The notes beneath the pieces were generated by a model, which ran no database searches, was not told where the DNA came from, and saw only the letters and a program-made list of their open reading frames with translations. A stretch of 32,000 nt of DNA from positions 60,001 to 92,000 of the forward strand of contig NZ_NVQC01000020.1 of the NCBI RefSeq assembly GCF_003044035.1, in the 5' to 3' direction. Positions 9,885-28,532 of this stretch are shown here, piece after piece. The stretch is from Candidatus Methylomirabilis limnetica (GTDB lineage Bacteria > Methylomirabilota > Methylomirabilia > Methylomirabilales > Methylomirabilaceae). Positions within the stretch are counted from its first letter, which is position 1. Each line of letters opens with the position of its first letter. Made by a program: the position numbers and the translations under genes.

Positions 9885-11155
9885 GCCTTGGCGAGGGCGC
9901 GAACGCCGATGTCCGTCCGGTAGTGTGCGCCTTCCCAATGGATCTTTTTTACCGCTCTGTAGGTGGTGGCGATCGCCCCTTGAATGTCTTGACCGAGGCC
10001 GGTGACACCCAGGACCCGCCCCCCTCCGGTGAGGATCTGACCTTCCATGCAGCTTGTCCCGGCGTGGAAGATCATGACACCAGGCTCTGCTGCCGCTTCC
10101 TCAAGCCCGGCGATCAGAGCGCCCTGGTCGTACGGGCCGGGATAACCTCTTGAGGCCATGACTACGCAGACGCTCGCGTCCGGCATCCAGTCGATTGTCT
10201 GGTCCCGTAGTCGACCGTCTACGACTGCCTCTAGCAGCGGGACCAGGTCAGACTTCATTCGCAGGAGCAGCGGCTGCGTTTCGGGGTCGCCGAACCTGGC
10301 GTTGAACTCGAGCACCTTGATCTCGCCCGCCCTGATCATCAGGCCGGCATAGAGAACGCCTTTGTATGGTCGTCCTTCGGCCGCCATGCCTCTGATGGTC
10401 GGGATCATGATGCGCTCCATGATCTGCTGCTGGATCGGCTCGGTGATGGCCCGCGTTGGAGAGTAGGCGCCCATGCCGCCGGTATTGGGGCCCTGGTCGT
10501 CATTGAACACGCGTTTATGATCCTGGGATGATGCCAGCGGCAAGACGGCGTCTCCGTCAGTCAACGCATGGAAGGAGACCTCCTCTCCCTCCAGGTACTC
10601 CTCAATGAGGATCCGCTCGCCGGCGTCGCCGAAGAGACGATCTTCCATAATCTTCTTGACCGCATCCAGCGCCTCTGGCAAATCGAAACAGACGATGACT
10701 CCTTTTCCCGCCGCCAGGCCATCGGCCTTCACGACGAGGGGGACACCGATCTCCTGGATGTATCGCTTGGCCTCCTCTGCCCGGTCGAACGACTGGAAGA
10801 AGCCGGTGGGGATATGGTACTTCTTCATGAAGCTCTTGGCGAAGACCTTACTCCCCTCAATGAGGGCAGCATCCTTCCTGGGTCCGAAGATGCGGAGTCC
10901 GCGGCGCTCGAATTCATCTACGATCCCAAGCGTAAGCGGACCTTCTGGTCCCACGACGGTCAGGTCAATCCGTTTCTGTTCGGCGAAATCTGCCAGCAGG
11001 CGGAAGTCGGAGGCGCTGATCTCCACGCACTCGGCGATCTCACTTATCCCGGCGCTTCCTGGTGCGACCCAGACCTTCGCCACCTTCGGACTCTGAGCGA
11101 TCTTCCACGCGAGGGCGTGTTCTCTTCCGCCTGAACCGATTACGAGAACCTGCAT
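9878..11155 (-). CDS. purD: Phosphoribosylamine-glycine ligase
   Basis: MQVLVIGSGGREHALAWK, an ATP-grasp body, and a GGAGG Shine-Dalgarno before ATG 11155. The ORF-track start at 11212 adds 19 non-conserved residues. Confidence 0.9.
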   Translation of the reverse strand: MQVLVIGSGGREHALAWKIAQSPKVAKVWVAPGSAGISEIAECVEISASDFRLLADFAEQKRIDLTVVGPEGPLTLGIVDEFERRGLRIFGPRKDAALIEGSKVFAKSFMKKYHIPTGFFQSFDRAEEAKRYIQEIGVPLVVKADGLAAGKGVIVCFDLPEALDAVKKIMEDRLFGDAGERILIEEYLEGEEVSFHALTDGDAVLPLASSQDHKRVFNDDQGPNTGGMGAYSPTRAITEPIQQQIMERIMIPTIRGMAAEGRPYKGVLYAGLMIRAGEIKVLEFNARFGDPETQPLLLRMKSDLVPLLEAVVDGRLRDQTIDWMPDASVCVVMASRGYPGPYDQGALIAGLEEAAAEPGVMIFHAGTSCMEGQILTGGGRVLGVTGLGQDIQGAIATTYRAVKKIHWEGAHYRTDIGVRALAKAS

Positions 11156-13890: not shown

Positions 13891-14340
13891 ATGAAGGTGT
13901 CCGCGAAGGGCGACTACGCTACACGAGCCATGCAAGATCTGGCTCTCCATTATGAGAAAGGGCCGATTCAGATAGAGGATATCGCCCGACGACAACACCT
14001 GCCGGCCCGTTACCTGGAACAGATCCTGTTAAGCCTCAAGCGAGCCGGCTTTCTCGAAAGCAAGCGGGGAGTCAGCGGGGGCTACTACCTGGCAAAGCAC
14101 CCCAGAGAGATTACGGTCGGAGCCATCATCAGGACCATGGAGGGCCCGATCATCCCTATCTTCTGTGTTGGGAGTGGGCCGCGAGAGATCTGCATTGAGG
14201 AGCCTCGCTGCGGCCTCCGGGATCTCTGGGCTGACGTGCGCGATGCCGTGGTGAAGATTGTGGACCACACCACGCTTGAAGACCTCAGCCGACAGATCCG
14301 TACGAGACAGGAGCGAGAGGGAGTAAGCTACCAGATCTAA
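13891..14340 (+). CDS. Rrf2-family transcriptional regulator (IscR/CymR-like) with three Cys in the cluster-ligand region
   Basis: The N-terminal wHTH MKVSAKGDYATRAMQDLA...IARRQHLPARYLEQILLSLKRAGFLESKRGVSGGYYLAK is classic Rrf2. It also has C-x9-C-x5-C (FCVGSGPREICIEEPRC). Confidence 0.85.
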   Translation: MKVSAKGDYATRAMQDLALHYEKGPIQIEDIARRQHLPARYLEQILLSLKRAGFLESKRGVSGGYYLAKHPREITVGAIIRTMEGPIIPIFCVGSGPREICIEEPRCGLRDLWADVRDAVVKIVDHTTLEDLSRQIRTRQEREGVSYQI

Positions 14341-14373: not shown

Positions 14374-15288
14374 ATGCCACGGTTGGCTCGAAATGTCCTG
14401 GAGTTGATAGGCGACACCCCGCTGGTCCAGTTACAGCGAATACCGCGCCCTGGATCGGCCCGAATTCTTGGAAAGCTGGAGTCGCTCAATCCGGGCGGAA
14501 GCGTGAAGGACCGAATCGCCTTGGCCATGATCGAGGCGGCCGAGCGGAGCGGGAGGCTGAAGCCGGGTGACACGATTGTCGAGCCGACCTCCGGCAATAC
14601 CGGGATCGGACTTGCGATGGTGGCGGCGGTCAAGGGGTACCGCCTGATCCTGACGATGCCGGAGGATATGAGTACGGAGCGGCGGAGGTTAGTCGGTCGG
14701 TACGGGGCCGAGGTGATACTCACCCCTGCCATCGAGGGAATGAGCGGCGCAGTCTATGCGGCAGAAACTCTCGTGGCGCAAAATCCTGGTTACTTCATGC
14801 CGCAACAGTTTGTGAATCCGGCCAACCCGGAGGCTCACCGCCTTACCACCGCGCAAGAAATTCTCAAGGCAACGGACGGGCAAATTGACGCTTTCGTGGC
14901 AGGCGTCGGGACTGGCGGGACGATTACCGGGGTGGGTGAGGTGCTGAAAAGGGAAGTCCCTGGCGTTCAGGTGGTCGCGGTGGAACCGGCCAGATCCCCC
15001 GTGTTACAGGGAGGCAGGGCTAGGCCGCATGGCATCCAGGGAATTGGCGCGAGCTTTGTCCCCGGCGTGCTGAACATGGAGGTAATTGATGAGATTATCG
15101 CCGTTGAGGACGAGGATGCCTATCGAATGGCCTCTCGCCTGGCCAGAGAGGAAGGCCTCCTGGTAGGGATCTCGGCCGGGGCCAATGTCTTTGCATCGAT
15201 AGTGGTCGCCGAACGGCTGCAAGCTGGGAAGGTTGTGGTGACGATCCTACCCGACACAGGAGAGCGGTACCTGTCGGTCTCATTCTGA
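14374..15288 (+). CDS. cysK: Cysteine synthase A (O-acetylserine sulfhydrylase), PLP-dependent
   Basis: [22 protein letters not shown] (PLP Lys), [12 protein letters not shown] and [10 protein letters not shown] are present. Confidence 0.85.
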
Positions 15289-15307: not shown

Positions 15308-16456
15308 ATGGATGGCTATCGTGGTGAGAATACCTCTCAGGGGATGACATCACCGGAAGGTGACCGTAGTGTGGCGATCCGTGTCTGCATCCCGACCCCG
15401 TATCGAAGACTGACGCAGAATCAGCCCGTCGTCGAGGGGCATGGGGACAATCTGGTAGAGCTTCTAGAGGATCTGGAGAGGCGTTTTCCAGGTATTCGCG
15501 AACATGTCTTCGATGGAGTTGGAGAGGTCCACCGTCATGTCAATGTCTATGTCAATAACGTGGCTGTGGAGGAGCTTGGAGGGAGGCGGACCGCGCTTAA
15601 GAACGGGGACGAGGTGATCTTGATCCCGGCTATGGCTGGGGGGAGCGCTCCGTTCAGTGAAGAGCAGATTCGTCGCTACAGTCGCCACATCATCCTCCCT
15701 GAGGTAGGCGGTAAAGGGCAGCGCAAGCTTCTGAACAGCTCGGCCCTGCTCGTCGGGGCGGGTGGTCTGGGTTCCCCTGCGGCTCTCTACCTGGCCGCTG
15801 CCGGCGTCGGTCGCCTCGGCATCATCGACGCCGACATTGTGGACCTGAGTAACCTGCAACGCCAGATCCTCCACCACGTGGATGATGTGGGACGACCAAA
15901 GGTTGTCTCTGCGGTCGAGTCGATTGCTCAGATCAATCCGGACGTAAAGGTAGAGCCGTTTCAAACGATCATCTCCTCGGCGAACGCGAAAGAGGTCATC
16001 AGTCAGTATGACCTGGTGGTGAATGGTTGCGACAATTTTCCGACCCGATACCTGGTCAACGACGCCTGTGTACTGCTGAAGAAACCACTCGTAGATGGGA
16101 GTATCTTCAAGTTCGAAGGCCAGGTGACGGTCTTCGCTCCAGGGCAGGGCTGCTATCGCTGTCTCTACCCTGCACCGCCGCCACCAGGGCTGGTCCCAAG
16201 TTGCCAGGAGGCCGGCGTACTGGGTGTACTCTGCGGTATTATTGGGAGTCTCCAGGCGATCGAGGCGATTAAGTTGCTGATCGGGATCGGCGATTCTCTG
16301 GCCGGGAGGCTTCTTTTCTTCGATTCGCTGGGGATGGAGTTTCGGCAGGTCAAGGTGCGACGCGATCTGAACTGTCCGGTCTGTGGTGATCATCCCACCA
16401 TTACCGATCTGATCGATTACTACGAGTTTTGTGGAGTTCCCGGCGGTGGTCACTGA
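15308..16456 (+). CDS. Fusion of a MoaD/ThiS-like ubiquitin-fold sulfur carrier (ending AMAGG) to a MoeB/ThiF-type E1 adenylyltransferase
   Basis: The N-terminal ~90 aa (IRVCIPTPYRRLT...VYVNN...NGDEVILIPAMAGG) is a clear paralog of the free-standing carrier at 28533..28811. Four residues later the E1 begins: EEQIRRYSRHIILPEVGGKGQRKL, VGAGGLGSPAALYLAAAGVG, DxVDLSNLQRQ, with Zn CxxC pairs GCYRC and NCPVC. There is no C-terminal rhodanese domain. Alternative starts are ATG 15344 and GTG 15371 (MAIRVCIPTP, preceded by GGAAGGTGA). Confidence 0.8.
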   Translation: MDGYRGENTSQGMTSPEGDRSVAIRVCIPTPYRRLTQNQPVVEGHGDNLVELLEDLERRFPGIREHVFDGVGEVHRHVNVYVNNVAVEELGGRRTALKNGDEVILIPAMAGGSAPFSEEQIRRYSRHIILPEVGGKGQRKLLNSSALLVGAGGLGSPAALYLAAAGVGRLGIIDADIVDLSNLQRQILHHVDDVGRPKVVSAVESIAQINPDVKVEPFQTIISSANAKEVISQYDLVVNGCDNFPTRYLVNDACVLLKKPLVDGSIFKFEGQVTVFAPGQGCYRCLYPAPPPPGLVPSCQEAGVLGVLCGIIGSLQAIEAIKLLIGIGDSLAGRLLFFDSLGMEFRQVKVRRDLNCPVCGDHPTITDLIDYYEFCGVPGGGH

Positions 16457-16475
16457 GACCGCGAACGGCGCAGCC

Positions 16476-17492
16476 ATGATCCGAATGATGGGCCTGGGTC
16501 TCGTTGTCGGGGCAGCCTTCGGGTACGCCCTGCAGCGTGGGCGCTTTTGCATGAACTCTACGTTCCGCGATATCCTGCTGGCGCGGGATCTCACCCTGCT
16601 ACGGGCCTACATCCTGGCTCTTTTGATTCAGATGGTCGGGGTCAGGGCGATGGCGACGTTGGGTCTGTTCGGGCTGGGCGTCACACCATTTTTTTGGGTA
16701 GCGACGTTGTGCGGCGGGTTCGTGTTCGGTATCGGAATGGCCTTTTCCGGTGGGTGAGGGAGCGGCAGTACTTACCGGTCCGGTGAGGGGATGGTGGGTT
16801 CGATTATTGCGCTGCTCGGTTTTGTATTTGGGATCACGATGACCAATGACGGCGTTTTAGAGCCGGTGCAAGTCGTCTTGCGGAGCTCCGTGGTTGAGAT
16901 CGATGGGCAGCCCGCAACGCTGGATCGCCTCTTGGGCGTGAATCCATGGATACTGGTAGTAACCTTCGTCATAGTTGGCGGTTGGTGGCTTCTGAAAAGC
17001 CCGGCCGGCGGCTACCAGAGAGGGTGGAGTTGGACAAGGAGCGGCATCACCATCGGTCTGATAGCCACGGCTGCCTGGCCGATCTCAGCCCTGACCGGAA
17101 GGGAGTACGGTCTTTCGATCACCGAGCCGATCCGAACGATCTCGGGGTTCCTGTTCACCGGTGAGACCTCCCTGCTCACCTGGGGGAGTTTCATGTGGGT
17201 GGGGCTCATTGCGGGCGCATACGTGGCGGCGAGGTCACATGGAGAGTTTGCCTGGCGCGCCCCTGGCGCTCAGCGTCTTCTCCAGGCTCTCGGGGGTGGT
17301 CTGCTGATGGGCGTGGGGGCCGGCATTGCGGGTGGATGCAACATCGGTCATGGGCTGACTGGAGTTCCACTCTTTGGACTGAGCAGTGTGACGGCGACAC
17401 TCGGTATTATCCTGGGAGTATGGGTCGGAGTCTATCTGTTGTTTGGTAGCATTGCGTTTGAGCGTGGGCCGCGAAACGCCCAGCGGGCGTAG
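16476..17492 (+). CDS. YeeE/YedE-family sulfur (thiosulfate/selenium) transporter, interrupted by an in-frame TGA (16755-16757) at a conserved Cys; candidate selenoprotein, or else split or pseudogenised
   Basis: ORFs 16431..16757 and 16791..17492 share a frame, and only the TGA lies between them. Read-through gives ...GIGMAFSGG-U-GSGSTYRSGEGMVGSIIALLGF..., paralleling the second-half motif GIAGGCNIGHGLTG. The first family Cys is at RGRFCMN. The total is 338 codons, typical for the family. ATG 16476 follows the E1 stop codon. Confidence 0.65.
16771..16787 (+). promoter_or_regulatory. Hairpin 13 nt downstream of the YeeE UGA with a GGUCC apical loop (candidate bacterial SECIS)
   Basis: CUUACC (16771-16776), GGUCC loop, GGUGAG (16782-16787). 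That gives six pairs, one of them a G-U wobble. Loop sequence and distance from the UGA resemble the E. coli fdhF SECIS apical loop (GGUC), recalled from memory. Confidence 0.4.
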
Positions 17493-17536
17493 AGTCTTCC
17501 GAACGTGGTGGCGATCGTAAAATCATGGGGGCAGCG

Positions 17537-17791
17537 ATGACGAAGTACTCCCTTGATGTGACTGGAGAGATTTGTCCGTATCCTTTGATGTTGACCAAAC
17601 AGAAAATGGGGAAACTTACAGCCGGTGATCAACTAGTGGTAATTGTCGATTACGCGAAATCGGTAGAAGATATCCCCAGATGGGCGAAGGAGGAAGGTTA
17701 TGCGGTCCTCGCCATTTCGGAAGTTGGTAGAACTCAATGGGAAATCGTCCTGGAAAAAGTCTCACCTGCATTATTGGAGGAGGGGAAATGA
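17537..17791 (+). CDS. TusA/SirA/YeeD-like sulfurtransferase
   Basis: SLDVTGEICPYPLMLTKQKM contains the CPxP active-site motif in an ~80-aa protein. ATG 17525 is an alternative start. Confidence 0.8.
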   Translation: MTKYSLDVTGEICPYPLMLTKQKMGKLTAGDQLVVIVDYAKSVEDIPRWAKEEGYAVLAISEVGRTQWEIVLEKVSPALLEEGK

Positions 17792-18033
17792 GTGGGGCGC
17801 CTGAGCAGATAGCCGAGTCCCTTGATCTGAAGGGGGAGGTATGCCCCTACACGTTTGTGAAGACCAAATTGGCGCTGGAAGAGCTACAAAGCGGTCAGGC
17901 GCTGATAATCATAGTGGATAACCCTAGTTCTGCTGAGAACGTTCCCAGGAGTTTACGCAGTGAAGGGCATATAGTTGCGGATGCGACGAAGTTGAATGAC
18001 ACTGACTGGGCGATCACGGTAATAAAGGCCTGA
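17788..18033 (+). CDS. TusA/SirA/YeeD-like sulfurtransferase, second paralog
   Basis: SLDLKGEVCPYTFVKTKLALEEL has the CPY motif. ATG 17788 overlaps the upstream TGA (ATGA) and follows GGAGGAGGGG. The ORF-track start at 17737 is an out-of-frame overlap with the first gene. Confidence 0.8.
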   Translation: MSGAPEQIAESLDLKGEVCPYTFVKTKLALEELQSGQALIIIVDNPSSAENVPRSLRSEGHIVADATKLNDTDWAITVIKA

Positions 18034-18085
18034 CCCGTAAGGTGAAGGTGGGCCGGGGACGAGAAGGCCGACAAAGAGGACATGG

Positions 18086-19021
18086 ATGAAAAAAGTCGAT
18101 ATTCTTGATGCGATCGGGCACACGCCGCTGATCGAACTGTCGCGGATGAGTCCCAAGAAAGAGGTTCGGATCTTCGCCAAGCTGGAGGGAGTGAACCCGA
18201 CCGGCAGCTTGAAGGATCGAATAGCGAAGTACATGATCGAGCAGGCCGAGCGGAGCGGCGAACTGACGAAGGGCCAAACGATTCTGGAGCCAACGAGCGG
18301 CAACACCGGTATCGCCTTGGCCATGATCGGGCGGAGGAAGGGGTACAAGGTCAAGGCGGTGATCCCGGAAAACGCTACCCCGGAGAGACGTCAACTCCTT
18401 GAGATCTTCGGCGCCGAGTTGATCTATTCTGATGGGACCAAAGGGAGTAATGGGGCTATTGAGTTGGCTCAAGAGCTTGTGGCGCAGGATCCAACCCTCT
18501 ACATGCCCTTTCAGTACGGTAATCCGGCCAACCCTCTGGCCCACTACGAAACGACCGGGGTGGAGATCCTGAACGACCTCCCGGAGGTTGATGTCTTTGT
18601 GGCCGGCCTTGGGACCGGCGGAACCCTGATGGGCGTGGGGAGACGGCTGAAGGAGCGTAACCCCAAGACCAAGGTCATTGCCGTGGAGCCGAATCCGGGC
18701 GATCTGGTCCAGGGGCTTCGCAGTCTTGATGAGGGTTTCATTCCACCGATCCTTGACACCAGCCTCTTGGACGGCAAAATAATGGTCGATTCTCGCTGTG
18801 CCTTTGCCGCTACCAAAGATCTGACCAACAAGGAAGGGATCTTTGCCGGCGTGTCCTCTGGGGCTGTCGTTCATGTGGCGATCCGGACGGCGCATCGAAT
18901 GGAGAAGGGCAACATCGTGGTAATCCTCTGCGATGGCGGGTGGAAGTATGTGAGCCTGGGTGTCTGGCATAAGGAGTTTCCCGCGCTGGGCGAGAACATG
19001 TACAGTCACCTCTGGTGGTAG
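18086..19021 (+). CDS. cysM: Cysteine synthase B-type PLP enzyme (CysM-like)
   Basis: [32 protein letters not shown] and GLGTGGTLMG are present. It lies next to a JAMM peptidase, as in the mycobacterial cysO-cysM-mec arrangement. Confidence 0.8.
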   Translation: MKKVDILDAIGHTPLIELSRMSPKKEVRIFAKLEGVNPTGSLKDRIAKYMIEQAERSGELTKGQTILEPTSGNTGIALAMIGRRKGYKVKAVIPENATPERRQLLEIFGAELIYSDGTKGSNGAIELAQELVAQDPTLYMPFQYGNPANPLAHYETTGVEILNDLPEVDVFVAGLGTGGTLMGVGRRLKERNPKTKVIAVEPNPGDLVQGLRSLDEGFIPPILDTSLLDGKIMVDSRCAFAATKDLTNKEGIFAGVSSGAVVHVAIRTAHRMEKGNIVVILCDGGWKYVSLGVWHKEFPALGENMYSHLWW

Positions 19022-19046
19022 GCCTGTGGTGAGCCCTGTCGAACCG

Positions 19047-19511
19047 ATGATCCATACGCAACCGGGGCTGAACGAAATCTTCGCTCACGCCGAGGAGGCA
19101 TATCCTGAAGAGGCCTGCGGGGTCGTCATAGGGAAGCCAGGCGATCCGAGTACGAATATTATCCGCAGATGCGCGAATCTGGCGAACCAGTATCAGCAGG
19201 ACGATCCAATTCGTTATCCGAGAGATGCAAGGACCGCCTATATCATGGACCCAAAGGACCTTCTACGGATTCAGAGCGAAGCTGATGCCAAAGGTCTTGA
19301 GTTTGTCGTTATCTACCATTCACACCCAGATCATGAAGCCTACTTCTCTGAGACCGATCGAGACTTGGCGTTGTTCGACGGTGAACCGTTGTGGCCGCAG
19401 ATGCACTATCTTGTCGTGTCAGTGAAAAATGGGAAAGTGTTGTACTTCAAAGCATTCAGGTGGGACGCGATCAAAAAAGAGTTTGCAGAAGAACCATCTG
19501 CTGTCTTTTAG
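19047..19511 (+). CDS. JAMM/MPN+ metallopeptidase (Mec+/HcyD/QbsD-like)
   Basis: Has the catalytic Glu context EEACGVVIG and a complete JAMM motif, HSHPDHEAYFSETD (HxH-x7-S-xx-D). GTG 19026 is an alternative start. Confidence 0.8.
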   Translation: MIHTQPGLNEIFAHAEEAYPEEACGVVIGKPGDPSTNIIRRCANLANQYQQDDPIRYPRDARTAYIMDPKDLLRIQSEADAKGLEFVVIYHSHPDHEAYFSETDRDLALFDGEPLWPQMHYLVVSVKNGKVLYFKAFRWDAIKKEFAEEPSAVF

Positions 19512-19602: not shown

Positions 19603-20559
19603 ATGGAAGTAATGGGCATGATGGACCTTGATACCGGGCAAATCACGCTCATAGCTATCACGCTCTTTGCGGCCGCCGTCAATGGGGCGCTAGGGTATGG
19701 GTTTTCATCGCTGACCGTCCCGGTTGCCCTCATCTTCTATTCTAACAGGATCCTGAATCCCGCCTTGGTATTGGTGGAGGTGGCCCTTAATAGCTACGTG
19801 CTGCTCGTCAATCGCAGTAGCATCCGGAAGATCTGGAAGAGGGTGCTACCGATCGTATTTGGCCTTATTCCTGGTGTCATCGCGGGGAGTTATTTCCTCT
19901 CGATGGCGAACCCGGGATGGCTTAAGCTGATCACGTATCTCATCGTGCTGCCGTTGATCCTGCTGCAGGCGGCAGGGGTCAGGCGGCCGATTCGGTCCGA
20001 ACATCTCATTGGTGTCCCGTTCGGCGCCGGAGTTGGCGTTCTCTATTCAACAACCACCATCTCTGGTCCTCCTTTGGCGCTCCTGTTTAACAACCAGGGC
20101 TTTGTCAAAGGCGAGTTTAGAGCCGCCCTTGGTCTGATCAGAATGGTCGAATCAACCGTGACAGCGACCGCGTATTACTTTCTAGGAGTGTATACTGCAG
20201 AGAGTACGGGGCTCCTGTCGTCGATCGTTCCGAGCGTCGCGATCGGGATTCCGATAGGGGCCTACATCATCAGACGCATGAATGCTGAAACGTTCAGAAG
20301 AATCTGTATGAGCTTCGATGCCTGGGTGGTGGGCTTTGGATTATCGAAGGTATTTATCGAGCTGGGATTGATCGCAAGCCCGCGTGCCTACGGTGTCTGG
20401 CTGGCTGTTATCATGATCGATCTCTTTTTACTCTACGGCTTCTTTACGAGGGGGCCGGAGATCTCGGCGGCCGCCTTGGCTGTCGATGCCCCTGATGGGG
20501 GTTCCAGGCTCATGCATCAAAAAACGCCGACCATAACCCAGGACGATCTGCCTGCATGA
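19603..20559 (+). CDS. TauE/SafE (TSUP, DUF81) family anion permease
   Basis: Polytopic membrane protein with the family N-terminus AAAVNGALGYGFSSLTVP and an internal repeat GAGVGVLYSTTTISGPP. Confidence 0.7.
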   Translation: MEVMGMMDLDTGQITLIAITLFAAAVNGALGYGFSSLTVPVALIFYSNRILNPALVLVEVALNSYVLLVNRSSIRKIWKRVLPIVFGLIPGVIAGSYFLSMANPGWLKLITYLIVLPLILLQAAGVRRPIRSEHLIGVPFGAGVGVLYSTTTISGPPLALLFNNQGFVKGEFRAALGLIRMVESTVTATAYYFLGVYTAESTGLLSSIVPSVAIGIPIGAYIIRRMNAETFRRICMSFDAWVVGFGLSKVFIELGLIASPRAYGVWLAVIMIDLFLLYGFFTRGPEISAAALAVDAPDGGSRLMHQKTPTITQDDLPA

Positions 20560-20589: not shown

Positions 20590-22359
20590 ATGATGGGGAG
20601 GGCAATAATGAATGATGCGGGCGAAAACAGGCCGTCCTGGGCTAGTGAGGAGGAGATCGATACCTTCGATCAGTTCGTCCAAAGGTTCTGGAATGGGGAG
20701 ATCTCACCAGACGAGTTCAAGCGGTTCCGCCTGCAGAACGGGGTCTACGGACAGCGGCAGGAAGGGGAACAGATGCTCCGGATCAAGATCCCGTGGGGCG
20801 GTCTCAGCTCGGATCAACTGGAGCTGCTCGCCGAGCTGGCGGCGAAGGCTCCGAAGGGGGTAGGTCACGTGACTACCCGCCAGAACATCCAGTTCCACTT
20901 CATCAAACTCGACCAGGTGACAGGACTGACGAGGAGCCTGGCCTCAATCGGGCTGACGACCAGAGAGGCCTGCGGAAACACCGTTCGCACCGTTACGGTC
21001 GGGCACTGCGCCGGGGTCTGCCCTCAAGAAGTGTTCGACGTTACCCCGTATGCCGCTACGATTACGCGATTTCTCCTGCGCAATCCGATGAATCAGAACC
21101 TGCCCAGGAAGTTTAAAATCGCGTTCTCCGGCTGTCCCGACGACCTTGGTCTCACCCCTATCCAGGACATCGGTGCCCGTGCTGCGCTCCGATTGACAGC
21201 AGGAAAGGAGGAGCGGGGCTTTCAGCTTTATGTCGGGGGCGGCCTAGGCCCCACGCCACACCTCGCGGAGTTGCTCGAGGAGTTTACGCCGGCGAATCGG
21301 CTCCTGCCGACAGTGGCCGCTATTGTGCGCGTATTCGACCGCCTCGGTAATCGTGACGATCGACACAAGGCCAGAATGAAGTTCCTGTTGAACAAGCTGG
21401 GGATCGAGCAGTTTCGATTACTGGTGTTCCAGGAGCGGACCGGACTCGAATCAACAATGGCCGGACAGTTTCCCCCTCTTGTCAGTTGGGAGGAGATCCC
21501 GCCTCATCGTGCATCACCTGTTTCGGCGGGTCCCATCAAAGAGTCGGACGATCCTGCCTACCGGGGGTGGCGGACCACCAATGTGCTGAAGCAGAAGCAG
21601 GCCGGATACCTGATGGTTCATGTTCGCCTCGAACTCGGAGACGTCACCTCAGTACAGCTTAGAAGCCTTGCCTTCGCGGCGCGTGAGTTCGGCGATGGCA
21701 CAGTCCGCAGCACGAACCAGCAGAACTTCGCCCTCAGGTGGATTCCCTCTGAGCGCCTCCCTGCGCTCTATCGGTTGCTCCACGCTGTCGGCTTGGCTGC
21801 CCCGTCGGCTGAACGGTTGGCAGATATTACCGCTTGTCCAGGCGCTGATACCTGCCAGCTCGGAATCACCTCCTCTCGCGGCTTGGCGGCTGCCCTGGGA
21901 GCCCTCTTCGATGATGAACTGAGGGATCTGGCGGATGAGGCGGGGATTCGGATGAAGATTTCTGCCTGCCCAAACTCTTGTGGCCAGCACCACCTTGCGA
22001 ATATCGGGTTTTATGGCGGCGCCAAAAAGTTCAACGGCCGGCAGGTGCCGACCTACGAGATGTTGCTGGGTGCGAGTTTGGCGCCGGGCCAGGCGCAATA
22101 TGGCAAGCCGGTGGCACGGATCCCGGCAAAGAATATCCCGGGTGCGGTGGAGGCGGTCCTCCGTCTGTATCAGAAAGAGCGACAGGATGGCGAATCGTTC
22201 AACGGCTTTCTGGATCGCTATGGGTTGGAGACCGTGAAGATAGTCCTGGCGCCCTTTACAGACCTGCTGCCGGTCTCTGAGGCGCCGGATCACTATCTTG
22301 ACTATAACGCTGAAGAGGCGTTTTCCGTCCAGACCGGGCCTGGCGAGTGCGCTGCGTAA
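20590..22359 (+). CDS. Assimilatory sulfite reductase hemoprotein (ferredoxin-type nitrite/sulfite reductase, siroheme-[4Fe-4S])
   Basis: TTRQNIQFH is present. The cluster/siroheme Cys motifs are CPGADTC and CPNSCGQHHLANIGF. The half-domain is duplicated. Confidence 0.85.
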   Translation: MMGRAIMNDAGENRPSWASEEEIDTFDQFVQRFWNGEISPDEFKRFRLQNGVYGQRQEGEQMLRIKIPWGGLSSDQLELLAELAAKAPKGVGHVTTRQNIQFHFIKLDQVTGLTRSLASIGLTTREACGNTVRTVTVGHCAGVCPQEVFDVTPYAATITRFLLRNPMNQNLPRKFKIAFSGCPDDLGLTPIQDIGARAALRLTAGKEERGFQLYVGGGLGPTPHLAELLEEFTPANRLLPTVAAIVRVFDRLGNRDDRHKARMKFLLNKLGIEQFRLLVFQERTGLESTMAGQFPPLVSWEEIPPHRASPVSAGPIKESDDPAYRGWRTTNVLKQKQAGYLMVHVRLELGDVTSVQLRSLAFAAREFGDGTVRSTNQQNFALRWIPSERLPALYRLLHAVGLAAPSAERLADITACPGADTCQLGITSSRGLAAALGALFDDELRDLADEAGIRMKISACPNSCGQHHLANIGFYGGAKKFNGRQVPTYEMLLGASLAPGQAQYGKPVARIPAKNIPGAVEAVLRLYQKERQDGESFNGFLDRYGLETVKIVLAPFTDLLPVSEAPDHYLDYNAEEAFSVQTGPGECAA

Positions 22360-22427
22360 TCATCGGATCAAGAGAGTGCCGTAGTCGGCTGGGAAGGTCG
22401 GTATGAACAACAATGAGAGGAGAGGGA

Positions 22428-23408
22428 ATGGGGAGACGGGTCGTTAAGCTGGCGCCATGGATAACCGGGCTAGCCTTGGTAGTAGGAGTCACGTGGATCG
22501 GCCAGGCCCACGCATACGAAGCATGGGTGACGAATCAGGAAGACCATACCGTCACCGTGATCGATACCGAGACTAATACGGTCCTCGACACGATCACGCC
22601 GGGCGGCAAGAAGCCCCATAACGTCGCCTTTTCACCGGACGGCGCCCATGCCTTTGTCGCGAATGTGGCGTCCAACGACGTGAACATGATCGAGACAAAA
22701 ACGAGAAAGGTGATCGCGACATTTCCCGCCGGGATCAGGGCGCATGGCCTTGCCGTTGCCCCCGATGGTAAGCAGCTCTGGGTGGCGAACCCGGGATCAA
22801 ACGATGTGACAGTCATTGATCTTCAACTCCGGCAAACGATCGACACGATCCCAGTCGGGAAAGCCCCCGCGCTCGTAGTCTTTGATCCGAAAGGCGCGAG
22901 AGCCTTTGTCAGCAACGGGGGATCCGGGGACCTTTCTGTGATCGATGCGAAGAGCCGGAAGATCATTACCACCATCGAGGCAGGCAAGGGCGCCATGGGG
23001 ACAGATATCACATGGGACGGAAAGCTTCTGCTGGTTACAGCGGGGGATGTCGATCGAATCGACGTGATCGATGCGATTAGTCACCAGGTCAAGGCGAGGA
23101 TCCCGCGAGAGGGCGAACCGCATGGCCTTGTGCTGTCGCCTGACGGGAAGCGAGCATACGTTGGGAGCCGCAAGGCGAATGTGGTGTCGATTGTCGATTG
23201 CAAGCAGTTGAAGATTATAAAAGATATTCCAGCAGGCAAGCGGATCGACATCATCACGATTACGCCGGATGGCCGTCGCCTCTACGTGACCAGCCGTGAC
23301 ACCAATACCGTGATCGCCATCGATACGCTAACAGAGAAGGTTGTCGCTGAGATTCCGGTAGGAAAAGACCCTCACGGGATCGCTGTACTTCCTGCGAGCC
23401 ATCACTAA
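22428..23408 (+). CDS. Secreted YVTN-type beta-propeller repeat protein (cytochrome-d1/lactonase-like fold)
   Basis: Signal peptide MGRRVVKLAPWITGLALVVGVTWIGQAHA. Repeats run V-T-V-I-D-...-P-H-G-x-A-x-S-P-D-G-...-Y-V-x-N. GGAG lies 6 nt before ATG 22428, and ATG 22413 is an alternative start. Unlike 2755..3906, it has no C-terminal sorting signal. Confidence 0.75.
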   Translation: MGRRVVKLAPWITGLALVVGVTWIGQAHAYEAWVTNQEDHTVTVIDTETNTVLDTITPGGKKPHNVAFSPDGAHAFVANVASNDVNMIETKTRKVIATFPAGIRAHGLAVAPDGKQLWVANPGSNDVTVIDLQLRQTIDTIPVGKAPALVVFDPKGARAFVSNGGSGDLSVIDAKSRKIITTIEAGKGAMGTDITWDGKLLLVTAGDVDRIDVIDAISHQVKARIPREGEPHGLVLSPDGKRAYVGSRKANVVSIVDCKQLKIIKDIPAGKRIDIITITPDGRRLYVTSRDTNTVIAIDTLTEKVVAEIPVGKDPHGIAVLPASHH

Positions 23409-23577: not shown

Positions 23578-24339
23578 ATGATGGAAAGACAATCGGGAAT
23601 TCAGAGCGCAGAGAGCATTATTGAACTGAACGAGCGGTTCCGGGGGGCCGGGCCGGAGGTGGTGCTTCGGTGGGCGATCGACACCTTCGCTCCCAAGCTG
23701 GCGCTCGCCAGCAGTTTTGGGGCTGAAGATATGGTTTTAATCGATATGCTGTCGAAGCTCGAGCCGGCGACCACGATTTTCACCCTGGACACAGGTCGGT
23801 TGCATGAGGAGACGTACGACATAATGGAGCGGACCCGAGAACGGTACAAGGTTGCGATTGAGAGCTACTTCCCGGGGCGAGACGCCGTAGAGGCGCTAGA
23901 GCGCGAGCGCGGGTTTTATTCCTTCCGGCAGAGTATCGAGGAACGGAAGTTCTGCTGTCGCGTCCGAAAGGTGGAGCCGCTCGGTCGAGCGCTGCTAAAC
24001 GTTGATGCGTGGATCACCGGGCTCCGGCGGGAGCAGGCAGCGACCCGCACCGGCATCGACGCTGTTGAGATTGATGCGAGCCATGGCTCAATCGTTAAGA
24101 TCAATCCGCTCGTCGATTGGACCGAGTCGCAGGTCTGGGCGTATATCCGCGAGCACGATGTGCCCAGCAACGCTCTTCATGACCAGGGCTTTCCCAGCAT
24201 CGGCTGCGCGCCATGCACGAGGGCTATCAAGCCGGGCGAGGATGTACGAGCTGGACGATGGTGGTGGGAAAACCCGGAGACCAAGGAGTGCGGGCTGCAT
24301 CTGGAGAGCGGACACGGCGATCATGGCGCACGCGGCTAA
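23578..24339 (+). CDS. cysH: Assimilatory APS reductase ([4Fe-4S]-type CysH)
   Basis: SFGAEDMVLIDM and the catalytic ECGLH are present. The Fe-S Cys pairs FCCRVRK and GCAPC are typical of APS-specific rather than PAPS-specific enzymes. The start is ATG 23578 or 23581, after AGGAGG. Confidence 0.85.
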   Translation: MMERQSGIQSAESIIELNERFRGAGPEVVLRWAIDTFAPKLALASSFGAEDMVLIDMLSKLEPATTIFTLDTGRLHEETYDIMERTRERYKVAIESYFPGRDAVEALERERGFYSFRQSIEERKFCCRVRKVEPLGRALLNVDAWITGLRREQAATRTGIDAVEIDASHGSIVKINPLVDWTESQVWAYIREHDVPSNALHDQGFPSIGCAPCTRAIKPGEDVRAGRWWWENPETKECGLHLESGHGDHGARG

Positions 24340-24352
24340 GGCGAGGGGTACG

Positions 24353-25567
24353 ATGTCGACAGGAGAGCACACGATGCAGAAATCGATTGAATCGCCGGAG
24401 ACAGAGGCGCCGACACAGATCCTCCCTCACGGTGGGCGGCTCGTCTCTCGGATACTTACAGGAGAGGCCAGGGCCGACGCGATAGGTAGGGCGCAGGATC
24501 TCCCCGCGATTTCCTTGAACGCGAGGGCCGTGTCCGACGTGGAATGCCTGGCCACTGGCGTCTTTAGCCCGCTCGAAGGGTTTATGGATCGGGGTGACTA
24601 CGAGGGGGTGGTCAATGAGATGCGCATGAAGAACGGCATACTGTGGACGCTTCCGATCACCCTGGCCGCGCCCAAAGAGGAAGCGGCCGGGCTACGGGAG
24701 GGGGGAGAGGCGGCCTTGCTGGACTCGGACGGTGAGCTGCTTGGCCTCCTCTCAGTGCAGGAGATCTTCCCCTACGACAAGCGCGCGGAGGCGTGCCTGG
24801 TATACGCTACAGAAGAGACGCGCCACCCTGGCGTGCAGTACCTGTACCAGCGGGGAGAGCTCTTGGTGGGCGGGTCGATCAGCATGGTTCGCCCCCCGTC
24901 GTTACCGGGATTCGAAGACTATTACTGCGTGCCGGCTGAGACGCGGCGACGGTTCAAGGAGCGTGGATGGCAGACCGTAGTCGGGTTTCAGACCCGCAAC
25001 CCGATTCATCGGTCGCACGAGTACATCCAGAAATGCGCGTTAGAGTTGATGGACGGCCTGCTGATCCACCCGCTGGTCGGTCGGACAAAGCTCGACGATG
25101 TCCCATCAGAAATCCGTCTTCGATGCTATCGCGCGCTTGAGGAGTGCTACTTCCCGAAGGAGCGCGTCATGCTGAGCGTCTTCCCTGGCGCTATGCGATA
25201 TGCGGGGCCGCGCGAGGCGGTCTTCCATGCCCTCGTGCGCAAGAACTATGGATGTACCCACTTCATCGTTGGGCGGGACCCCGCAGGGGTAGGCGGCTTC
25301 TATCATCCATACGCCGCCCGTGACCTCTTCCTGCGGCTGTCACGCGACGAATTGGACATCACCCCGCTCTTCTTCGATGAGGCCTTCTTCTGCCGTCGCT
25401 GCGATGGGATGGCCTCGTCCAAGACCTGCCCACATGAGGCGTCCGAGCGGGTGACGCTGAGTGGCACGCGCGTTCGTGAACTCCTTCGGAGCGGTGAGGC
25501 GCTACCAGAAGAATTTACGCGGCCGGAGGTCTCCGAGATCCTGGCGGAATGGATGCAGGGTGAATAA
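24353..25567 (+). CDS. sat: Sulfate adenylyltransferase (ATP sulfurylase)
   Basis: FQTRNPIHRSHEY and HFIVGRDPAGVG are present. ATG 24353 follows the cysH stop and a GAGGGG Shine-Dalgarno. The ORF-track start at 24002 lies inside cysH in another frame. Confidence 0.85.
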   Translation: MSTGEHTMQKSIESPETEAPTQILPHGGRLVSRILTGEARADAIGRAQDLPAISLNARAVSDVECLATGVFSPLEGFMDRGDYEGVVNEMRMKNGILWTLPITLAAPKEEAAGLREGGEAALLDSDGELLGLLSVQEIFPYDKRAEACLVYATEETRHPGVQYLYQRGELLVGGSISMVRPPSLPGFEDYYCVPAETRRRFKERGWQTVVGFQTRNPIHRSHEYIQKCALELMDGLLIHPLVGRTKLDDVPSEIRLRCYRALEECYFPKERVMLSVFPGAMRYAGPREAVFHALVRKNYGCTHFIVGRDPAGVGGFYHPYAARDLFLRLSRDELDITPLFFDEAFFCRRCDGMASSKTCPHEASERVTLSGTRVRELLRSGEALPEEFTRPEVSEILAEWMQGE

Positions 25568-26230
25568 TCAGTTCTTTGGCGGCTTCGGTAGGCGGATGGT
25601 GGGGTAGTTGGCTGTCAACCAGTGGCCAATTCCCCCCGGGACATTGCCGGCCCTTGGGAAGCCGTGGTGAAGCAGGATGCTGGCCGCCGTGCTGCTGCGC
25701 ACACCTTCTTCGCAGATCAGGACGATGTGTCGACGGCGATCGAGTCCGTAAGTCTGCTGCCAGATTTCTGCAAGCGAGATGAGCAGCGAGCCTTTGATAT
25801 AGCCCAGCTCCCACTCGAACGGCTCCCGCACGTCGATCAGTATCAGTTCATCGTCCGGAGCGTTCAGGCGTTGCCAGAGATCCGAGACAGACACTTGTGA
25901 CAGTTGGACCAGCGGCAATCCTGCGTGGTCCCACGCCTCGGCGCCTCCAGTGACGATTCCCTGGAGAGGATTTCGATCCACCCACTGGAGCGCATCAGCC
26001 GCGGCCTCAGCAACACCCTCCTCGCCGGAGAGGAGTATGATCGGGGGACCGGGTGGGATCGCGGTCGCGACGCGCTCAGAGAGGCTTTTACGACTGAAGA
26101 CGATGTTGATACTGCCCGGAATATGGCGTGACGCGAACTCCTTGTGCGGGCGCAGATCGATCAGCAGCACGCCTTCGTCTAATGCGCTCTTTGCCTGATG
26201 TGGCGTCAACGTCGGTATCTCGCTTGGCAT
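25568..26230 (-). CDS. Tandem rhodanese-domain sulfurtransferase
   Basis: Two rhodanese folds. The C-terminal one has the active-site loop CEEGVRS. The N-terminal one has Ser at that position (LSGEEG). The start is uncertain: ATG 26230 or TTG 26329. Confidence 0.7.
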   Translation of the reverse strand: MPSEIPTLTPHQAKSALDEGVLLIDLRPHKEFASRHIPGSINIVFSRKSLSERVATAIPPGPPIILLSGEEGVAEAAADALQWVDRNPLQGIVTGGAEAWDHAGLPLVQLSQVSVSDLWQRLNAPDDELILIDVREPFEWELGYIKGSLLISLAEIWQQTYGLDRRRHIVLICEEGVRSSTAASILLHHGFPRAGNVPGGIGHWLTANYPTIRLPKPPKN

Positions 26231-26506: not shown

Positions 26507-26746
26507 ATGGCGAAAAAACGCATACACTTAACGTTTACCGGTAAGCTGGCCGAGGAGCCGATCCTGTGGCAGCTTAGTCAGACCTTCAACGTGGTCTTCA
26601 ATATTCGCCAGGCCGACTTTACCGAGGGAATCGGGTGGATCATGGCGGAGCTTGAGGGAGACCCTCAGCCGCTTGAGAATGGGATTACGTGGCTGGAGGA
26701 TCATGGTGTCCATGTGGCGCCCATCGAGCAGGACGTCGTCTCTTAA
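26507..26746 (+). CDS. Stand-alone NIL-domain protein (MetN C-terminal-like ferredoxin fold)
   Basis: 79 aa. ...EPILWQLSQTFNVVFNIRQADFTEGIGWIMAELEG...GITWLEDHGVHVAPI matches the NIL-domain pattern (..NIl.a.i....G.l.lel.G). Confidence 0.65.
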   Translation: MAKKRIHLTFTGKLAEEPILWQLSQTFNVVFNIRQADFTEGIGWIMAELEGDPQPLENGITWLEDHGVHVAPIEQDVVS

Positions 26747-26794
26747 GGAGATCGAGTCCTTGATTGTTGCTTGATAGGTAGCTGCTCAGGTGTT

Positions 26795-26812
26795 TAGGCT
26801 GAAGGCTGTAGG
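26795..26812 (-). repeat. Partial inverted copy (R4) of the dispersed repeat
   Basis: The reverse complement cctacagccttcagccta matches the core of R1 and R2. Confidence 0.5.
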
Positions 26813-26913
26813 CTGTTAGCCGTTGCGCATGGACCAAATCAAGGCGCCTAGAACCTTTTCGGTCTCCATCATTTTCGCGTCGCATTCGGAAAACGCCTGG
26901 CTCATCGGTGCGC

Positions 26914-26949
26914 GTTCCTACAGTCTAAAAGATTACAGTCTATCTACCT
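26914..26949 (+). repeat. Divergent copy (R3) of the dispersed repeat
   Basis: gttcctacagtctaaaagattacagtctatctacct shares gttcctac...ctaaaag...cagtct...atctacct with R2. Confidence 0.6.
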
Positions 26950-26977
26950 AAGTAGTTACCGGTGAAGGGACCATGTG

Positions 26978-27214
26978 ATGCCAAAACGGATGATCACACT
27001 CATCTACCCACAGGCACTGATCAAAGAGCCGGTGATCTATCGTCTTGCGCGTGAATTTAAGCTCATTCCTAATATTCGCCGGGCGCGAGTGACGGAGCAG
27101 GCAGGCGAGGTCATGCTGGAGTTGGACGGCGAGGAGGAAGCGTTGAATAAGGGGATTGCCTACCTGGCCGGTTTAGGGATCAGGGTGGAGCCGACTCCGG
27201 AGAAGGGACGCTGA
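26978..27214 (+). CDS. Stand-alone NIL-domain protein, second paralog
   Basis: MPKRMITLIYPQALIKEPVIYRLAREFKLIPNIRRARVTEQAGEVMLELDGEEEALNKGIAYLAGLGIRVEP aligns along its length with 26507..26746. Its stop is 1 nt before the ThrC-like ATG. Confidence 0.65.
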   Translation: MPKRMITLIYPQALIKEPVIYRLAREFKLIPNIRRARVTEQAGEVMLELDGEEEALNKGIAYLAGLGIRVEPTPEKGR

Positions 27215-27215
27215 G

Positions 27216-28478
27216 ATGGCGCAGGTGAAAGGATTGAAGTGCAGGGAGTGCGGCAGACCATATCCCGCTGAGCCTCTGCATGTCTGTGAGTTCTGTTTCG
27301 GGCCTCTTGAGGTCGATTACGATTACGACGCACTCCGCGGTACGCTGACCAGAAAAGCGATCGAGGCTGGACCGCCCAGCATCTGGCGATACAAGGCGCT
27401 GCTGCCGATCGAGGGAGAGCCCGTGGTCGGGAAACATTGCGGGATGACGCCCCTCGTGAGGGCCAAGAACCTGGCGCGCGCGTTAGGCATGCGGGAGGTC
27501 TATGTCAAAAACGATACCGTGAGCCATCCCACCTTTTCATTTAAGGATCGGGTGGTGGCGGTAGCGGTGACTAAGGCCGTGGAGTTTGGCTTCAAGGTGG
27601 TGGCCTGTGCCTCTACCGGCAACCTGGCAAACTCGGTGGCGGCCCACGCCGCCGAAGGGGGGCTTCGAAGCTTCGTCTTTGTGCCGTCCGACCTGGAGCA
27701 GGGCAAGGTGCTGGGCACCCTGATCTACAACCCAAAGCTGGTGGCCGTGGACGGCAACTACGATGAGGTCAACCGTCTGTGCAGCGAGATTGCCGATAAA
27801 TATGGATGGGCCTTTGTGAACATTAATATCCGGCCTTACTACGCTGAGGGCTCCAAAACCTTTGGGTACGAGATCGCAGAGCAACTTGGCTGGCGTGCGC
27901 CCCAGCACATCGTTGTGCCGGCCGCGGGGGGTTCGCTGGTCACGAAGATCTTGAAGGGGCTTAAGGAGTTCGATCGACTCGGCCTCCTGAATGGCGGCTG
28001 CGCTACGCGGATGCACGTGGCCCAGGCGGAAGGGTGTGGCCCCATTGTGACCGCTATCAAGGCGAACAGCGAGATCATTAAACCGGTCAAGCCAAAGACA
28101 ATCGCCAAGTCGCTCGCCATCGGGAACCCGGCGGACGGCTACTACGCCTACAAGGTCGTCAAGGAGAGTGGTGGCCACGGGGAACATGCCACAGATGAGG
28201 AGATTGTGGAGGGTATGAAGCTGTTGGCCAGCACTGAAGGGATCTTTTCCGAGACCGCCGGCGGGGTGACGATAGCGGCGGCCAAACGGCTGATCGAGCA
28301 GGGGCGAATCCCCAGGGACGAAAGCCTGGTCCTCTGTATCACCGGCAACGGGCTGAAGACCCAGGAGGCAGTCGCCTCATCACTGAAGGTTCGGCTGCAC
28401 ATCAAACCGACCCTTCGAGCGTTTGATGAAGCGATGGTCTCTCATGGAATCGACGTCACGTCGAGAACAATGGACTAA
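27216..28478 (+). CDS. Threonine-synthase-family PLP enzyme with an N-terminal Zn ribbon (ThrC or MetM-like homocysteine synthase)
   Basis: CRECGRPYPAEPLHVCEFCFGPLEV is the Zn ribbon. HPTFSFKDR holds the PLP Lys, and ASTGNLANS is present. It lies directly upstream of a MoaD-like carrier. Confidence 0.8.
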   Translation: MAQVKGLKCRECGRPYPAEPLHVCEFCFGPLEVDYDYDALRGTLTRKAIEAGPPSIWRYKALLPIEGEPVVGKHCGMTPLVRAKNLARALGMREVYVKNDTVSHPTFSFKDRVVAVAVTKAVEFGFKVVACASTGNLANSVAAHAAEGGLRSFVFVPSDLEQGKVLGTLIYNPKLVAVDGNYDEVNRLCSEIADKYGWAFVNINIRPYYAEGSKTFGYEIAEQLGWRAPQHIVVPAAGGSLVTKILKGLKEFDRLGLLNGGCATRMHVAQAEGCGPIVTAIKANSEIIKPVKPKTIAKSLAIGNPADGYYAYKVVKESGGHGEHATDEEIVEGMKLLASTEGIFSETAGGVTIAAAKRLIEQGRIPRDESLVLCITGNGLKTQEAVASSLKVRLHIKPTLRAFDEAMVSHGIDVTSRTMD

Positions 28479-28532
28479 AGCACGAAAACACGAGAGCGTA
28501 TACGGCGAGCTATTATCGAAAGGAGCAGATTG

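Follow-up and report, generated by a model that had tools for sequence, protein, structure and literature searches.

The activation chemistry of the MoeB-MoaD and ThiF-ThiS sulfur-carrier systems needs a free C-terminal carboxylate on the carrier. In the HcyS-HcyD-HcyF system of W. succinogenes and the QbsE-QbsD-QbsC system of Pseudomonas, a JAMM protease trims the residues that follow the carrier's Gly-Gly (GG) before activation by the E1 enzyme. JAMM proteases also cut linear MoaD-MoaE and SAMP fusions, exposing the C-terminal Gly, according to a passage of PMC8832034 that cites Yang 2018, Hepowit 2012 and Cao 2015. Iyer, Burroughs and Aravind (2006; PMC1779556, Table 1 rows 4c-4e) described operons that combine ThiS/MoaD, E1 and JAB with cysteine synthase or sulfate-assimilation genes, noted a ubiquitin-like (Ubl) domain fused N-terminally to some ThiF proteins, and proposed that JAB cleaves ThiS/MoaD off proteins fused to it; Makarova and Koonin (2010; PMC2948915) listed 'Ubl-E1-TBP' as one of the fusions common to archaea and bacteria. 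Here we describe a fusion of a CysO-like sulfur-carrier protein (SCP) to a MoeB/ThiF-type E1 in Candidatus Methylomirabilis limnetica (NC10), encoded in a 32-kb stretch of contig NZ_NVQC01000020.1 (positions 60,001 to 92,000), hereafter the window. The fusion is an NC10 instance of an architecture present in the comparative-genomics literature since 2006-2010; added here are quantified evidence for the junction as a processing site and a fuller picture of a two-carrier cysteine (Cys) and homocysteine (Hcy) cluster.

The window shares the parts of the M. tuberculosis CysO/CysM/Mec+/MoeZ pathway: a CysO-like GG carrier, a CysM-type enzyme with an equivalent of R220, a JAMM gene beside CysM, and a MoeB/ThiF-type E1. 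It differs in that the carrier is the N-terminal domain of the E1, whereas CysO has its own gene; in that MoeZ's C-terminal rhodanese is missing from the E1, a tandem rhodanese being encoded separately (related lineages have SCP-E1-rhodanese proteins, SCP-E1-Rhd); and in that the cluster lies inside a complete operon for sulfate/thiosulfate assimilation, where CysK is a second cysteine synthase. The MoaD-MoaE, SAMP1-MoaE and MoaX fusions, which JAMM enzymes cut (D. radiodurans DR0402, H. volcanii HvJAMM1), provide the likeness of an internal-GG carrier fused head-to-tail to its partner, and the window too has a JAMM gene nearby. There, however, the partner is the sulfur acceptor MoaE, the pathway is that of the molybdenum cofactor (Moco) and cleavage has been demonstrated, whereas here the partner is the activating E1, the pathway leads to Cys and Hcy and cleavage is predicted. 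In the Hcy and Qbs systems the extension after GG is one or two residues, in contrast to the whole enzyme that follows GG in the window. The catalogued Ubl-E1 fusions have, like ours, a beta-grasp domain N-terminal to a Rossmann-fold E1, but Iyer 2006 and Makarova and Koonin 2010 give the architecture in one sentence, with no analysis of GG conservation, linker or co-occurrence and without covering NC10, and the catalogued C. jejuni example was termed 'distinct from ThiS'. A literature search that did not extend to Burroughs et al. 2009 (PMC2732565) found no dedicated experimental study of an SCP-E1 fusion.

The fusion open reading frame (ORF) encodes 382 amino acids (aa) if translation starts at ATG 15308 and 361 aa if it starts at GTG 15371 (Table 1). 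Pfam assigns aa 28-112 to ThiS (E 1.4e-12, exceeding the gathering score) and aa 124-358 to ThiF (E 1.3e-85), and the two domains meet in the sequence ...LIPAMAGG(111-112)-SAPF-SEEQIRRYSRHIILPEVGGKGQ...GAGGLGSP, in which the linker SAPF is followed by the E1 N-terminal helix SEEQIRRYSRH and then by the GAGGLGSP nucleotide loop. NCBIfam aligns aa 42-112 with SAMP1 and archaeal MoaD models and aa 107-117 onward with MoeB, MoeZ and UbaA models, those of MoeB ranking first. Among PDB sequences the carrier matches M. tuberculosis CysO best (3dwg_C, 3.6e-16) and the ThiS/MoaD family protein 4n6e_B second, whereas MoaD and SAMP structures match at 3e-06 or worse; the E1 matches ThiF at 5.7e-63 and MoeB at 9.2e-61. 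The E1 carries an RYSRH arginine motif, two CxxC pairs (C282/C285 and C356/C359, the zinc cysteines) and Cys299 within an SCxEAGV loop, and these residues and the nucleotide loop are all invariant in an alignment of 79 sequences. No rhodanese was found in the ORF by Pfam or NCBIfam, and the ORF stops ~20 aa past the second CxxC.

An AlphaFold2 (AF2) model built from the 79-sequence alignment has a mean confidence score (pLDDT) of 81.6, with a confident strand-helix domain at aa 24-107, a low-confidence linker at 109-116 and a confident E1. Foldseek gives the E1 part a TM score of 0.90 to both ThiF and MoeB; run with the whole model, it returned E1 matches only and none for the small beta-grasp domain, whose fold is assigned from sequence matches to CysO/ThiS structures and AF2 secondary structure. 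The protein described by the sequence-only reading, a beta-grasp carrier ending in PAMAGG and joined through SAPF to a MoeB/ThiF E1 with GAGGLGSP and two CxxC pairs, is borne out by Pfam, the CysO match, the AF2 model and, for the E1, Foldseek. Residues 1-21 (pLDDT ~30) are poorly conserved and probably lie outside the folded protein; most homologues begin M-x-V-x-V-Y-I-P-T-P, matching residue 21-22 of the window protein. Because residues 1-21 are of low pLDDT and missing from most homologues, GTG 15371, with GGAAGGTGA upstream, is a plausible alternative and may be the true start.

The ORF is a genuine translational fusion. Among the 120 homologues that match best (66-98% identity; independent assemblies from NCBI, JGI, ENA and Logan), 117 have both Pfam domains; the remaining three are either truncated or of odd length. 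Three independent contigs, each from a close relative, have the same uninterrupted ORF in the same gene order: L001, from the NC10 metagenome-assembled genome (MAG) GCA_028870115.1, at 88% identity, and L085 and L086 at 98%. Neither G111 nor G112 varies in an alignment of 16 sequences or in one of 79. Related loci do exist in which carrier and E1 are split, with overlapping stop and start codons (L034, L013, L017, L022), so a one-base error, whether a lost stop or a frameshift introduced in assembly or sequencing, could mimic a fusion; but the 117 homologues from four data sources, the agreement of the three contigs and the at least 23 divergent fused loci described below leave this explanation with almost no probability. 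Conservation across independent assemblies likewise excludes the frameshift or hidden stop after GG of which the sequence-only reading had warned. Separate translation of the E1 was also considered and rejected, as none of the start codons ATG, GTG and TTG occurs between G112 and R123, and M109 lies within the carrier motif and is not conserved.

The fusion is also far from confined to this organism, and is not unusual: at least 23 distinct fused loci in at least six phyla, archaea included, came from a sampling rather than a census of GTDB species genomes together with contigs fetched by protein look-up. No NC10 genome is among the matches listed in the GTDB scan. Among the fused loci listed, SCP-E1 occurs in NC10 and Chloroflexota/Dehalococcoidia, and SCP-E1-Rhd in Gemmatimonadota, Acidobacteriota, Thermoplasmata archaea, a Phototrophicaceae MAG and a Ruminococcus-labelled MAG. 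GG is kept in all 23 divergent fused loci listed, at 38-55% identity, and the motif [IV]P[AS]xAGG is invariant in every fused sequence inspected. The linker behind it varies in both length and sequence, the GG-to-RYSRH spacing in the 23 loci ranging from 9 to 34 aa, with a first post-GG residue that is always A, S or T. A variable linker behind a fixed GG is what one would expect where a junction is processed, not where it forms a fixed structural interface.

A search with the carrier domain against 1.84 billion cluster representatives gave 2,936 matches at E <= 1e-3, and the sequence after GG was inspected in the best 150 of these. It consists of nothing, of 1-7 residues (R, C, S, CF and others) or of a whole partner domain, which is an E1 in ~20 clusters of the best 150. 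Other partners follow a retained GG as well, namely NIL (P0161), a pyridoxal phosphate (PLP) enzyme (P0170), an amino-acid kinase (P0189) and sulfite reductase (P0256), and in P0139 a second carrier stands after GG in tandem; a CysO-like carrier placed before diverse partners of sulfur amino-acid pathways makes a polyprotein-like pattern.

In a tree of E1 domains the SCP-E1 forms make up one clade, with the unfused L034 and L031 at its base, while the SCP-E1-Rhd forms are intermixed with ordinary MoeZ-type E1-Rhd genes. L015 has an unfused twin in L034, where the gene order is the same. Fusion and fission have evidently happened repeatedly, and the free interchange of the two forms in the tree suggests that the fused and split states are functionally equivalent. 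It lends no support to the self-priming or stoichiometry-enforcing variant of the sulfur relay that the sequence-only reading had raised as a possibility. In compact operons of the form CysM-JAMM-[SCP-E1-Rhd] the fused carrier is the only carrier present. The Chloroflexota/Dehalococcoidia loci L003, L006, L015 and L034 have up to three carrier paralogues each; where there are three, one is fused to or abuts the E1, one stands beside CysM and one beside MetM. In L002 the fused gene (10001..11098) lies beside DsrE/DsrH, TusA, GcvH-like, lipoate-ligase-like and radical-SAM genes, a context that looks like sulfur oxidation (sHdr/LbpA-like).

The enzymes that a CysO-type pathway calls for are encoded downstream of the fusion. 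The CysM-type enzyme has M. tuberculosis CysM as its top PDB match (1.3e-88), with ordinary CysK and O-acetylserine sulfhydrylases at 1e-72 or worse, and its R212, in the motif LRxxDEGF, aligns with CysM R220, the O-phosphoserine-binding residue. By sequence the gene is CysM-type. Immediately downstream is the JAMM gene (stop at 19511), whose product has an intact motif, E(EACG)...HSH-x7-S-xx-D, and matches Pfam Prok-JAB (3.1e-26) and the MPN protein 2kcq (4.4e-13). The JAMM enzyme had been put forward as the only candidate protease, and it is: Pfam scans of all ORFs of at least 100 aa found no other peptidase family in the window. That JAMM and CysM lie downstream of the fusion and side by side also holds, but the distance of three genes does not, as YeeE, two TusA genes and CysM intervene and JAMM is the fifth gene downstream. 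The detached tandem rhodanese is likewise present, on the minus strand. Its N-terminal domain lacks the catalytic Cys, only the second domain having a CxxGxR loop (CEEGVRS); it matches the rhodanese parts of the NCBIfam MoeB/MoeZ models PRK08762 and PRK07878, and its homologue in L001 has 220 aa.

The fused carrier is not the window's lone carrier. A free CysO/MetO-like carrier, overlooked by the sequence-only reading, is encoded some way downstream; it shares 47% identity with the fused carrier and 51% with CysO, groups with MetM-adjacent carriers, and has a single residue after GG, a Cys, that needs to be removed before use. It closes a second thiocarboxylate module (26507..28811) made up of two NIL-domain proteins, a ThrC homologue and this ThiS-family carrier. 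The ThrC-like/carrier pairing also occurs in L015, L033, L034, L037, L038, L039, L042 and L077; mostly with a NIL-domain gene in addition, it recurs in Nitrospirota, Chloroflexota and others (L015, L034, L037, L039, L077). The region 27216..28811, a ThrC-like PLP enzyme beside a ThiS-family carrier with a C-terminal extension, resembles the MetM/MetO/Mec/MoeZ pathway of Streptomyces, in which Mec matures MetO and MoeZ activates it, as quoted from Hasebe 2024 in the GapMind 2026 preprint (10.1101/2024.10.14.618325); the comparison applies to the free carrier, not to the fused one, and the two accompanying NIL-domain genes fall outside the published description as quoted there. Because the free carrier sits beside a MetM-like ThrC homologue, the window's E1 and JAMM probably have a second client and serve both carriers.

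We consider it likely that the window encodes a CysO/CysM/Mec/MoeZ-type pathway in which the carrier is made as an E1-fused pro-protein and freed by JAMM. This is the logic that the sequence-only reading had proposed, and the identities of the parts support it well. The domain identities, the intact catalytic motifs, the conservation of GG, the linkage of the genes and the spread of the fusion are established by our analysis; we infer cleavage after GG, thiocarboxylation, the pairing of synthase with carrier and the sulfur source. Since the established MoeB-MoaD and ThiF-ThiS chemistry requires a free carboxylate, a GG that is internal would have to be exposed by proteolysis. The fusion would be translated as a pro-protein, and JAMM (~19026..19511) would cut after Gly112 to give an E1 of ~270 aa and a ~10 kDa carrier whose Gly-Gly carboxylate is free. 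An E1 dimer would then adenylate the carrier C-terminus using ATP, and addition of sulfur would convert the acyl-adenylate to the carrier thiocarboxylate, possibly with involvement of the invariant loop Cys299. The sulfur could be persulfide that is relayed through the stand-alone rhodanese, the two TusA proteins or both, with YeeE as the feeding transporter; alternatively, sulfite reductase could provide it as sulfide. In the CysM-type enzyme the thiocarboxylate would act as the nucleophile on the aminoacrylate intermediate, and the resulting carrier-Cys adduct would be hydrolysed by the same JAMM, freeing cysteine and recycling the carrier. The same E1 and JAMM would probably also process and charge the free GG-Cys carrier (28530..28811) for the MetM-like homocysteine synthase.

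Several observations weigh against this pathway as the role of the fusion. JAMM lies within 10 kb in 19 of the 23 fused loci listed, often adjacent as CysM-JAMM-[SCP-E1-Rhd]; the fusion is widespread, but the constant co-occurrence with JAMM about which the sequence-only reading had asked was not found, L002, L012, L025 and L030 having no JAMM in their flanking DNA even with a profile search. JAMM is near only 21 of all 60 unfused E1 loci (Fisher p = 1.5e-4 against the fused loci), a mixed set that includes Moco-type MoeB genes, but near 13 of the 19 unfused E1 loci that have a nearby carrier, which does not differ from the fused loci (p = 0.47). JAMM is a regular member of the whole carrier-system class and not a signature of the fusion, and since a Mec-like and trimming role explains its presence, it is not specific evidence for cleavage of the fusion. 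In the Chloroflexota loci L003, L006 and L015 CysM has its own adjacent free carrier besides the fused one, so the fused carrier may not be the partner of CysM everywhere. In the SCP-E1 clade the fusion is always behind a CysK-type gene, not CysM, and the conservation of the Rrf2-CysK-SCP-E1 triad in NC10 and Chloroflexota points to co-regulation of the E1-linked carrier with the CysK-type enzyme, which, rather than CysM, may be its user. The trees are neighbour-joining distance trees without support values. Experimental cleavage of any SCP-E1 fusion was also not found in the literature search, which, as above, did not extend to Burroughs et al. 2009.

Part of this evidence fits a protein that is never cut, in which the N-terminal beta-grasp would be a tethered docking, regulatory or pseudo-substrate module and free carriers (the one at 28530..28811 here, CysM- and MetM-adjacent ones elsewhere) would do the work. 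The Chloroflexota loci that hold free carriers beside CysM and MetM in addition to the fusion, the four fused loci without a nearby JAMM and a JAMM linkage that is not fusion-specific are all in keeping with such a module, and Iyer 2006 describes a non-ThiS Ubl domain at the N-terminus of some ThiF proteins. A structural module has no reason, however, to keep a carrier C-terminus, and here Gly-Gly and [IV]P[AS]xAGG are invariant while the linker varies; the CysM-JAMM-[SCP-E1-Rhd] operons hold no further carrier, and none lies beside CysM in the window; and fused and split forms swap within one E1 clade. We regard an uncut module as unlikely.

Alternatively, the carrier could be released but serve another pathway (molybdopterin, tRNA thiolation or the adjacent CysK-type enzyme), with CysM using a carrier encoded elsewhere. 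One E1 can serve several carriers in actinomycetes (MoeZR, 2-thiosugar biosynthesis), the best NCBIfam models for the E1 are MoeB models, and Rrf2-CysK rather than CysM is the conserved neighbour in the SCP-E1 clade. The carrier, however, is far nearer to CysO than to MoaD or SAMP structures, Pfam scans of the window ORFs found no MoaE, MoaA or other Moco gene, and the entire cluster is devoted to sulfate/thiosulfate assimilation and to Cys and Hcy synthases, which together make this role improbable.

The CysO-type pathway with a cleaved fusion could also be read more strongly, with the fusion as a cleavage-gated zymogen, more than a handy way of packing genes, and JAMM as the single switch for both halves of the relay, cysteine and homocysteine. 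The uncut carrier would be useless for want of a free carboxylate; the uncut E1 may be crippled, its RYSRH helix, 10 residues past GG, being tethered to a bulky domain; and after cleavage the carrier would be delivered straight onto the E1 dimer with which it was born. In lineages with three carrier paralogues, the E1-fused one might in addition have a dedicated client of its own. We offer this as a speculation that is probably wrong.

The fusion sits in an NC10 sulfur-assimilation supercluster of sulfate/thiosulfate assimilation genes and Cys and Hcy synthases (Table 1). The Rrf2-CysK-(SCP-E1) order that opens it recurs in L001, L002, L003, L005, L006, L007, L015 and L034, and the genes elsewhere in the window are for purine, envelope and isoprenoid functions. 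Scanning the window with Rfam yielded neither a riboswitch nor any other RNA family at gathering score. Two YncE-like beta-propeller proteins are encoded in the window, one at 2755..3906 and one within the cluster, the latter in a position between sulfite reductase and CysH that is conserved in L001.

Table 1. Coordinates of the SCP-E1 fusion, its parts and the surrounding sulfur-assimilation genes in the window
Feature	Position	Strand	Basis or remark
Rrf2-family transcription regulator	13891..14340	+	Pfam Rrf2 1.4e-38; opens Rrf2-CysK-(SCP-E1) triad
CysK-type cysteine synthase A, directly upstream of fusion	14374..15288	+	NCBIfam TIGR01139 cysK 444 bits (cut-off 351); Pfam PALP
SCP-E1 fusion: CysO-like carrier domain and MoeB/ThiF-type E1 adenylyltransferase	15308..16456	+	Pfam ThiS and ThiF; homologue architecture; AF2
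Beta-grasp sulfur-carrier domain, aa 22-112	15371..15643	+	PDB sequence matches, GG conservation, AF2 secondary structure
Gly111-Gly112 codons	15638..15643	+	invariant in alignments
Linker SAPF, aa 113-116; predicted cleavage site between G112 and S113	15644..15655	+	AF2 pLDDT <50 at residues 109-116
E1 adenylation domain, aa 117-382	15656..16453	+	PDB matches, Foldseek, invariant motifs
YeeE/YedE-family sulfur (thiosulfate) transporter, in-frame TGA 16755..16757	16431..17492	+	Pfam Sulf_transp on both halves
TusA/YeeD-like sulfurtransferase 1	17537..17791	+	Pfam TusA 9.7e-23; start by analogy with L085
TusA/YeeD-like sulfurtransferase 2	17788..18033	+	Pfam TusA 4.9e-20; start by analogy with L085
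CysM-type (M. tuberculosis-like) PLP sulfhydrylase, predicted carrier-thiocarboxylate user	18086..19021	+	PDB 3dwg_A/3dki_A
JAMM/MPN+ metalloprotease, Mec-like	19026..19511	+	Pfam Prok-JAB; start GTG 19026/19029 or ATG 19047
TauE/SafE-family membrane protein (sulfite/anion exporter family)	19603..20559	+	Pfam TauE 1.9e-23
Assimilatory sulfite reductase, NirA/Sir type	20590..22359	+	Pfam NIR_SIR and NIR_SIR_ferr; NCBIfam
YncE-like beta-propeller protein	22413..23408	+	between sulfite reductase and CysH
Adenylylsulfate/phosphoadenylylsulfate (APS/PAPS) reductase CysH	23578..24339	+	Pfam PAPS_reduct 9.3e-50
ATP sulfurylase Sat	24368..25567	+	Pfam PUA_2 and ATP-sulfurylase
Stand-alone tandem rhodanese, candidate persulfide donor to E1	25568..26230 (alternatively to 26329)	-	Pfam Rhodanese, two stretches, 1.5e-27
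NIL-domain protein 1	26507..26746	+	Pfam NIL 3e-17
NIL-domain protein 2	26975..27214	+	Pfam NIL 1.4e-14
Threonine-synthase (ThrC) homologue, MetM-like; predicted carrier-thiocarboxylate-dependent homocysteine synthase	27216..28478	+	NCBIfam thrC, Pfam PALP
Second, free sulfur carrier, 93 aa, ending PAIAGG-C, MetO-like	28530..28811	+	GG-near-C-terminus ORF scan; Pfam ThiS 2.7e-15

The YeeE/YedE ORF that follows the fusion is interrupted by one in-frame TGA, in the motif GG-U-GSG at a conserved Cys position. One reading frame spans both Sulf_transp-matching halves. The 98%-identical relative L085, an independent contig, shares the TGA, flanked on either side by changes of synonymous type, and the 88% relative L001 has TGT (Cys) in its place. 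Downstream of the codon lies a stem, ACUUACC/GGUGGGU, in which every base is paired in both TGA-bearing sequences but two positions are mismatched in the Cys-encoding one, and a selenoprotein family 'YeeE/YedE thiosulfate transporter, GUxSG' is listed in PMC13188914. The TGA is probably a selenocysteine codon and the gene not a pseudogene.

If cleavage is confirmed, the fusion would be the first biochemical example of a Ubl sulfur carrier made as the pro-protein of its own E1, and the rule of JAMM processing, known from MoaD-MoaE, would then cover the activation step as well. No new mechanism follows from the fusion, as each single step has a characterised precedent, and its practical value lies chiefly in pathway reconstruction. 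As an annotation rule, ThiS-plus-ThiF proteins in Cys and Met clusters would be read as CysO joined to a MoeZ-like E1, not as 'MoeB'. NC10, Chloroflexota, Acidobacteriota, Gemmatimonadota and Thermoplasmata would then be read as making both cysteine and homocysteine via protein thiocarboxylates.

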